A DNA stretch of 64,000 nt, taken from a virus. Within the stretch, counting starts at the first letter, position 1; each line of letters begins with the position of its first letter. The DNA lies in the IMG/VR virus record IMGVR_UViG_3300028584_001241; one strand, 5' to 3'. A program made the translations under genes and the position numbers. Shown one piece after another: positions 63,016-63,763 of the stretch. Under the pieces are notes generated by a model, which saw nothing but the letters and a program-made list of their open reading frames with translations, searched no databases and was not told where the DNA came from.

Positions 63016-63044
63016 TTGACTTTGGAATGAACCTTTGATAAAAT
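63016..63044 (+). promoter_or_regulatory. sigma70 promoter of the Leu leader
   Basis: TTGACT-17-TAAAAT. Confidence 0.75.
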
Positions 63045-63068
63045 ATGAACATTAACGAGGACGAAATT

Positions 63069-63131
63069 ATGTTCACAACTATTCGATTATCACTGCTACT
63101 CTTAAGCTCACTATTACTTAGCTTGGGCTAG
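63069..63131 (+). CDS. Leucine-rich leader peptide (20 aa)
   Basis: GAGG RBS; MFTTIRLSLLLLSSLLLSLG*; 9 Leu using all six codons. Confidence 0.75.
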   Translation: MFTTIRLSLLLLSSLLLSLG

Positions 63132-63141
63132 CATCTATTTG

Positions 63142-63237
63142 TCTGCATTTTGGACAATTAGATTGTCCAGATGCAGATGACCTCGAAGTTAATCACTCGC
63201 CTCATTTCGCATCTGGACCCCAAAAGGGTCTTTTTTT
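63142..63237 (+). promoter_or_regulatory. Transcription attenuator (alternative hairpins + terminator)
   Basis: Hairpin 63142-63177; antiterminator GTCCAGATGC (63165-74) : GCATCTGGAC (63209-18); terminator GACCC-CAAAA-GGGTC-T7. Confidence 0.72.
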
Positions 63238-63327
63238 ATGGGCGAATGTCTAGGGTAAGCTACAACCATAAATAACGTAACTTATTGATTTAAAAGGAAA
63301 ATAATTTAAAATAAATTAAAAAAGTTG

Positions 63328-63356
63328 TTGACAAAGATGAAAAGAGTTGCTAGAAT
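63328..63356 (+). promoter_or_regulatory. sigma70 promoter of the tRNA cluster
   Basis: TTGACA-17-TAGAAT. Confidence 0.75.
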
Positions 63357-63408
63357 GTTAAACATGAAGAGTAAGGAAACAAACAAAAGCTCTTCAAGAA
63401 ATAAATAT

Positions 63409-63493
63409 GCGGATGTGGCGAAAATGGTAAACGCGACTGTCTCAAACACAGTTTCTATAATGATTGTGAGTTCAAGTCTCACCTTCCGCACCA
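63409..63493 (+). tRNA. tRNA-Leu(CAA)
   Basis: GCGGATG/CTTCCGC acceptor, ACTGT-CTCAAAC-ACAGT anticodon arm, GTTCAAGT T-loop, encoded CCA. Confidence 0.88.
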
Positions 63494-63588
63494 AATGAAG
63501 ATTTAAAATTAGGTTGCTCCGGTTCCCACTGGAAACTTTGAAACATAGTATTTATTTGTAACTCACTATTATCAAAGTCAAACCTCTT

Positions 63589-63672
63589 ATGAGTATGATG
63601 TAATGGTAGCCATGATGTCTAAGCGTAGACATGCCCCTAAAAGGCGTAAGGGTTCGAGTCCCTTTACTCATT
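63589..63672 (+). tRNA. tRNA-like RNA / pseudo-tRNA with 8-nt anticodon loop, no CCA
   Basis: ATGAGTA/TACTCAT acceptor; ATGTC-TAAGCGTA-GACAT; variable arm; AAGGG-TTCGAGT-CCCTT T-arm. Confidence 0.6.
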
Positions 63673-63679
63673 AAGATAT

Positions 63680-63763
63680 GCGATTGTGGTGGAATGGTAT
63701 ACACGTTGGTCTAAGAAGCCAATGCCGCAAGGATTGAGAGTTCAAGTCTCTCCAATCGCACCA
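63680..63763 (+). tRNA. tRNA-Leu(AAG)
   Basis: GCGATTG/CAATCGC acceptor, TTGGT-CTAAGAA-GCCAA anticodon arm, long variable arm, A73, encoded CCA. Confidence 0.85.

Follow-up and report, generated by a model that had tools for sequence, protein, structure and literature searches.

Near the end of the 64,000-nt stretch of viral DNA analysed here (IMG/VR virus record IMGVR_UViG_3300028584_001241; the whole stretch is hereafter called the window), two genes for leucine tRNAs are preceded by a promoter, a leucine-rich mini open reading frame (ORF) and a set of competing RNA hairpins. We consider it likely that this element is a ribosome-mediated leader-peptide attenuator which controls the leucine tRNA genes and which, as judged from folding models, probably makes more tRNA-Leu when leucine codons are decoded slowly. 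The parts of the element, its conservation, its association with tRNA arrays and the match between leader codons and array in three modules were directly observed. A first-pass annotation, made from the letters of the window, had proposed that a leucine attenuator serves tRNA-Leu genes in place of a leu operon, a proposal now supported by the conservation of the leader, by its association with tRNA-Leu genes in a relative, by parallel modules in front of other arrays and by folding models in which the position of the ribosome decides the fold.

Codon content and conservation of the leader

The elements of the locus, all of which lie on the plus strand, are as follows (nt, nucleotides; bp, base pairs; SD, Shine-Dalgarno sequence).

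63016-63044, +, promoter P1 (sigma-70, near-consensus): TTGACT-17-TAAAAT, 10 of 12 consensus matches, extended -10 TG
63057-61, +, SD GAGGA, 7 nt 5' of the ATG at 63069
63069-63131, +, leader ORF MFTTIRLSLLLLSSLLLSLG: 20 codons, then TAG at 63129-31
63094-63133, +, hairpin A:B, within the leader ORF: -10.9 kcal/mol
63133-63163, +, hairpin C': -9.2 kcal/mol, 5' arm beginning 2 nt past the leader stop codon
63139-63180, +, hairpin C:D, the anti-antiterminator: 19 bp, one bulge, -21.4 kcal/mol
63165-63218, +, antiterminator D:E: 63165-80 paired with 63202-18, 16 bp, one bulge, -23.3 kcal/mol
63215-63238, +, intrinsic terminator E:F: 6-bp stem 63215-63231, -8.1 kcal/mol, T7 tract to 63237
63239-63356, +, A/T-rich spacer and promoter P2: TTGACA-17-TAGAAT at 63328-56, 11 of 12 matches
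63409-63493, +, tRNA-Leu(CAA), from tRNA search
63589-63672, +, tRNA-like RNA with an aberrant anticodon arm, scoring under the threshold of the Rfam tRNA model
63680-63763, +, tRNA-Leu(AAG), from tRNA search

The promoter, ribosome-binding site and 20-codon ORF of the first-pass annotation were all recovered, and the genes P1 might otherwise serve on its 5' side lie on the opposite strand, so that P1 serves the leader only. Nine of the 20 codons (45%) specify leucine, in the order TTA CTG CTA CTC TTA CTA TTA CTT TTG, and all six kinds of leucine codon are represented, as had been claimed. This fraction contrasts with a background of 9.3% leucine codons in the long ORFs of the window, and places the leader first among 527 small ATG-initiated ORFs of the window; the probability that nine leucine draws would hit all six codons under local usage is P = 0.044. 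The leader RNA is moreover unusually stable (z = -5.1), none of 200 shuffled sequences being as stable. The ORF closes with UAG, which ends only 4 of the 58 long ORFs of the window and which likewise ends the second leader of the lineage (described below); it may lengthen the dwelling of the ribosome at the stop codon, or it may mean nothing. Beyond the UAG the leader frame reaches a second UAG (63159-61), which forms the loop of C:D. Searches with covariance models returned no match to the Rfam Leu_leader family even at E <= 10, and neither a T-box match (RF00230, E <= 10) nor a T-box motif was found in the leader; other Rfam families gave no match to it either, and it has no sequence similarity to leuL. 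It would thus resemble leuL in its mode of action while standing outside the Rfam Leu_leader family.

The conservation of the individual segments was assessed against a single close relative, the leader locus L001 of genome G001 (IMG/VR 3300031088_000737, 181 kb, part of a 1.86-Mb metagenome contig), which is syntenic with the window (Fpg 87% identical, a 614-residue neighbour 58% identical). Across the leader ORF, the C'/C:D segments, segment E and the terminator, not one of 149 nt differs between the two, and the only differences within D:E fall in its apical loop (4 of 21 nt, all within 63188-94). By comparison, the spacers have diverged by ~10%, the promoters by 7-14% and the two true tRNA-Leu genes by 0-1%. 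P1 carries two changes in L001, both confined to its spacer, and the SD and the short ORF are retained; the relative lacks the alternative in-frame start further upstream (ATG 63045), which leaves the 20-codon form as the conserved one. To the extent that two sequences can tell, the leader is thus conserved to the same degree as a tRNA gene, synonymous sites included, and these frozen synonymous sites indicate selection on RNA or codons.

In the relative, the leader precedes an array in which one tRNA-Gln and a tRNA-like RNA are interspersed among 12 tRNA-Leu genes, and because the anticodons of these tRNA-Leu genes (CAA, AAG, UAG, UAA and CAG) cover the leader, each of its leucine codons has a reader. 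The first-pass annotation had asked whether relatives keep the leader beside tRNA-Leu or beside leuA: L001 has the tRNA-Leu array, and neither leuA nor any other leu gene was found in it or in the window. Other searches for relatives gave less. The 614-residue neighbour has protein homologues at 84-92% identity; a 237-residue neighbour used as query retrieved no relatives from genome or viral contig collections, a search with the P2 pattern returned G001 as the only relative, and the plasmid and phage collections yielded matches at the tRNA level only.

Codon-matched leaders in front of other tRNA arrays

A second module of the same lineage lies elsewhere in the genome of the close relative (locus L005, 1322-1510; G001 155734-155922) and consists of a consensus promoter, an SD, a 13-codon ORF, hairpins and a terminator of 10-12 bp. 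Its ORF (MNIQLTIRARAIS) contains AGA GCC AGA GCG and ends in UAG with an in-frame UGA directly after it (1418-1423), and the array that follows encodes tRNA-Ala(UGC) five times, tRNA-Arg(UCU) twice and tRNA-Arg(CCU). The block from terminator to P2 is homologous to that of the window (78% identity), and the leader part was not matched to the window leader by sequence search. A third module, found by searching with the rare anticodon arm of tRNA-Leu(AAG), is present on separate phage-like contigs (L042 385-590; L039 3210-3420), where a promoter, an SD, the ORF MFTLKSKSYCSKLLGGLS and a terminator precede tRNA genes in the order Gly, Gly, Tyr, Lys, Lys, Leu, Ser, Leu, Ser, Leu and onwards. Here, 14 of the 17 residues that follow the initial methionine belong to the amino-acid set of the array (Leu/Lys/Ser/Tyr/Gly; binomial P = 1.2e-4). 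No internal promoter was seen, and the ORF of L042 ends in UAA.

Both modules were examined with folding models. In L005 the antiterminator would be occupied at 0.05 in untranslated RNA, at 0.59 with a ribosome stalled at ACU, AGA, GCC or AGA, and at ~0.2 with a ribosome at the stop codon, which suggests a his-like design that terminates by default. In L042 the antiterminator arm begins immediately 3' of the stop codon, and its modelled probability drops from 0.89 to 0.07, since only a ribosome on the final codons or on the stop codon masks it, as would befit a simpler version of the switch design seen in the window. As read from the sequences, the leader codons track the identity of the downstream tRNAs in all three modules. 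We regard this as our strongest argument for a sensor role of the ORF, as opposed to that of a peptide gene.

Modelled fold switching, its direction and the alternatives

Two mutually exclusive folds are available 3' of the leader ORF: C' together with D:E, which would allow read-through, and C:D together with E:F, which would terminate. The hairpin that the first-pass annotation had placed at 63142-63177 is real and longer (63139-63180, our C:D), and its perfect 10-bp antiterminator (63165-74 with 63209-18) likewise exists, although its true length is 16 bp, the perfect helix being continued by the pairing of 63175-80 with 63202-07. The overlap of this antiterminator with the terminator also held: D:E occupies four of the six bases of the terminator 5' arm (63215-18), and the two structures therefore exclude one another. 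Hairpins A:B and C', as well as a possible pairing of GAGG in the SD (63057-60) with CCUC (63200-03), were absent from the first-pass annotation. Summed energies amount to -32.5 kcal/mol for the read-through state (C' plus D:E) and to -29.5 kcal/mol for the termination state (C:D at -21.4 plus E:F at -8.1).

We modelled the ribosome as a block extending 18 nt to the 5' side and 10-14 nt to the 3' side of the first base in the A-site codon (an assumed footprint), on RNAs ending at 63219 or 63224 (that is, before the 3' arm of the terminator becomes available) and with nearest-neighbour energies. The predicted antiterminator probability was at least 0.96 without a ribosome, or with a ribosome on any codon through AGC 63120 (a span comprising eight of the nine leucine codons), and fell to 0.06 or less when GGC 63126 or UAG 63129 occupied the A site, where C:D rose to 0.72-0.87; the last leucine codon (63123) gave intermediate, footprint-dependent values. 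The size of this flip (0.75) was reached by none of 300 dinucleotide shuffles of 63132-63214 (shuffle mean 0.10). As regards kinetics, C' is the minimum-energy fold until ~63171 has been transcribed, and refolding along direct paths is estimated to face barriers of 13.2 kcal/mol (C' to C:D), 14.6 kcal/mol (C:D to C' plus D:E) and only 4.4 kcal/mol (C' to C' plus D:E). Barriers of this height imply that whichever hairpin forms first likely persists for as long as transcription needs (about a second) and so settles the result.

Equilibrium and kinetic modelling both yield the logic of a classical attenuator. The first-pass annotation had considered a possible inversion relative to leuL, its first hairpin lying entirely past the stop codon; the models do not support this, as hairpin C', starting 2 nt past the stop codon, would restore the classical order. 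The transcript from P1 would open with 20 codons, nine of them for leucine and each kind of leucine codon among them, and C' would be made first; because its 5' arm begins so close behind the stop codon, only a ribosome that completes the ORF (i.e. one on the last codons or on the UAG) could prevent it. With charged tRNA-Leu in ample supply, the ribosome would keep pace with the polymerase and block C', C would pair with the emerging D, E would be left free to form the terminator, and the P1 transcript would end at ~63238. Slow decoding at any of the first eight leucine codons would instead let C' form and persist, so that D pairs with E and the polymerase crosses P2 into tRNA-Leu(CAA), the tRNA-like RNA, tRNA-Leu(AAG) and a NUDIX hydrolase gene. 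The outcome would be a feedback that lifts tRNA-Leu output above the constitutive level set by P2 whenever leucine decoding is limiting. The same models contain no protector hairpin, and an untranslated leader RNA would accordingly be expected to read through.

Four other candidate features were considered and set aside. For a his-type B:C pairing, 63120-38 and 63139-58 proved too poorly complementary, both by eye and in the folds. Read-through of the UAG would keep the frame open to the UAG at 63159 and then to 63275, with leucine codons (63135 and 63150) ideally placed over segment C; it was not adopted, UAG being a genuine stop in the window (4 of 58), followed directly by UGA in L005 and replaced by UAA in L042. 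A second mini-ORF over C:D (TTG 63139 to TGA 63180) was dropped for want of a convincing SD, and a mini-ORF at window position 8733, followed by a terminator, sits inside a gene whose own terminator that is.

Several observations weigh against a leucine-sensing attenuator. The comparison with one close relative contains no stem substitution and hence offers no covariation support, and a recent transfer of the whole block could contribute to the conservation. In a distant relative (G002, 290 kb, 35 tRNAs), the tRNA clusters are not preceded by any leader-terminator module. The annotated second promoter is present (P2, near-consensus, starting 90 nt 3' of the terminator), and its placement between terminator and tRNAs makes these independent of read-through, which can only add to constitutive synthesis or interfere with it. 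The hydrophobic peptide could have a function of its own, and the terminator stem is short (6 bp). As for the folding, the flip at equilibrium needs the 5' untranslated region (including GAGG of the SD) to pair with CCUC (63200-03) in the D-E loop, and once all RNA on the 5' side of the ribosome is blocked, equilibrium favours D:E in every case. The direction of the switch would then depend on barriers estimated by a heuristic path search, and a kissing contact between the loop and D could speed the passage from C' to C:D. Direction, kinetics and effect on tRNA level are, in sum, inferred.

With these points in mind, we weighed three other explanations. One keeps the attenuator and changes its signal or its output: it would sense general translation capacity, RF1 activity or amber suppression at the UAG instead of leucine decoding, or read-through would lower tRNA levels through occlusion of P2, or the terminated leader RNA would act in trans. 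The use of the rare UAG by both leaders of the lineage is consistent with this, as are the modelled dependence of termination on a ribosome that lingers at the stop codon and the capacity of tandem promoters to interfere with one another; yet 45% of the codons specify leucine, the leader codons of three modules vary together with their tRNA sets, L042 lacks an internal promoter and has UAA as its stop, and the UAG of L005 is backed directly by an in-frame UGA, all of which leads us to consider it unlikely. A further explanation would make the segment an independent small gene, in which P1, ORF and terminator form a unit for a 20-residue membrane peptide or an Ibs-like type I toxin, the tRNAs are transcribed from P2 only and the alternative pairings serve mRNA stability or the control of translation. 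The peptide is indeed hydrophobic and rich in Leu and Ser, its unit has a promoter and a terminator of its own while P2 alone could serve the tRNAs, and in the terminated RNA the SD can be sequestered by CCUC (63200-03), as happens in some toxin mRNAs. This explanation would, however, leave a 16-bp antiterminator over the terminator arm without purpose, and the occurrence of all six leucine codons together with the frozen synonymous sites points to the codon or RNA level. The equivalent ORFs before other tRNA arrays, furthermore, are not hydrophobic and yet match the amino acids of their arrays, no convincing antisense promoter was detected (best site, 9 of 12), and the 20 residues have no Pfam match (short peptides being hard to classify). 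We hold a small gene of this kind to be distinctly improbable.

That the leader is a relic of a lost leu operon, or a chance assembly of hairpins beside a tRNA promoter, would sit well with the lack of available covariation. Against it stand the perfect conservation of the leader and the absence of leu genes from the window and L001, the stability of the fold, the flip that no shuffle reproduced and the existence of parallel modules, and we give it very little credence. An attenuator that responds to the decoding of leucine codons and acts upon tRNA-Leu genes is consequently the explanation we prefer.

Genomic surroundings and relation to known systems

The downstream genes named by the first-pass annotation, namely tRNA-Leu(CAA), a tRNA-like RNA and tRNA-Leu(AAG), were confirmed, and one further gene begins before the window ends.

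63792-64000, +, NUDIX hydrolase gene, start only, with its own SD

As it has an SD of its own and no terminator was found between it and tRNA-Leu(AAG), the NUDIX gene is probably co-transcribed with the tRNAs; it is missing from the equivalent place in L001. The 95-nt spacer between tRNA-Leu(CAA) and the tRNA-like RNA (63494-63588) is ~91% conserved, with a G+C-rich core (GGTTGCTCCGGTTCCCACTGGAAAC) identical in L001, and may be a processing signal or a further small RNA. In the tRNA-like RNA itself, the anticodon arm reads tgtct-AAGCGT-agaca in the window and tgtct-TCGCTT-agaca in the relative (L001 2249-2334). The two loops are roughly reverse complements, as if inverted, the acceptor and T arms are the same, and ARAGORN assigns a 4-base anticodon in both cases (agcg and cgct). 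Unusual tRNAs also occur in the distant relative G002 (L020-L034), where positions 179840-180923 encode two tRNAs with the amber-reading anticodon CUA among Leu and Met tRNAs, together with one tRNA with a 4-base anticodon (tttg).

The window as a whole is AT-rich and encodes a ClpB-like ATPase, Fpg, transporters and a fusion of a Pnkp phosphatase with an RNA ligase. This fusion (783 residues, 41832-44183, minus strand) joins a P-loop kinase, a metallophosphatase and a T4 Rnl1-type RNA ligase, i.e. domains of the tRNA-repair type, and shares 27-31% identity with proteins from phages of Firmicutes, among them SPbeta-like and Staphylococcus phages.

Beyond the single locus, we incline, somewhat more than not, to the view that the tRNA arrays of giant plasmid-like elements and large phages operate as separate feedback circuits, each with a codon-matched mini-gene, such that a shortage of working tRNA would induce the corresponding array alone; ribosome-mediated attenuation of tRNA gene transcription would then constitute an undescribed class of regulation. 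The shortage could arise from a mismatch with host codon usage, from starvation or from host anticodon nucleases. If the attenuator works as modelled, tRNA-rich mobile elements would regulate each amino-acid family on demand, beyond simply adding tRNAs, and the redundancy of their arrays could be approached directly (as an answer to codon mismatch or to defences that target tRNA). The tRNA-repair-type fusion is encoded in the same window. The leader would also be a small, naturally occurring component from which tRNA homeostasis could be engineered.

Bacterial and phage tRNA genes are regarded as growth-rate-controlled or constitutive. Our literature search found no report of leader-peptide control of tRNA genes, and a circuit by which a tRNA gene would gauge how well its own product performs in decoding is not known to us. 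A candidate phenylalanine leader at E. coli pheV was rejected on inspection of NC_000913.3, where yqgA and pheV are only ~105 nt apart and the ORF in question is absent.

Among known systems, the nearest in design is leuL of the enterobacterial leuABCD operon, with which the window leader shares a short, translated, leucine-rich ORF, the choice between terminator and antiterminator and, as modelled, a stalled ribosome that favours read-through. Whereas leuL has a run of four leucine codons and controls biosynthetic enzymes, the leucine codons of the window leader are spread out and of all six kinds, and it precedes tRNA-Leu genes, with a second promoter past the terminator. The trpL and hisL leaders (E. 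coli, Salmonella) would be alike in that the segment next to the stop codon is covered by the ribosome that terminates there, which allows the terminator to form, the order of synthesis selecting the hairpin. In trp, however, the masked segment is an arm of the antiterminator, while in the window it would be the 5' arm of C', a helper hairpin that keeps D free; L005, in terminating by default, is nearer to the his type. The multivalent leaders ilvL and thrL also sample several kinds of codon, and come closest to L005 (Arg and Ala) and L042 (Leu, Lys, Ser, Tyr and Gly), with the difference that here the codon mix mirrors the anticodons of the downstream array. T-boxes sense the state of a specific tRNA, as the window leader is proposed to do, and decide between terminator and antiterminator, although they bind uncharged tRNA directly and without translation.

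In pheM-pheST, a leader peptide lies ahead of genes for an aminoacyl-tRNA synthetase. Leader-peptide attenuation before synthetase genes is further known from the His-leader hisS paralogues (PMC2965389). Both systems would resemble the window in that attenuation is applied to the decoding machinery rather than to amino-acid synthesis; in both, however, the target is the charging enzyme, while in the window it would be the tRNA genes, the sensor thereby reading the product of the very genes it controls. The proposed mechanism is, taken as a whole, that of a textbook leader-peptide attenuator (leuL, hisL, trpL), and what the literature search did not find described is its placement before tRNA genes.

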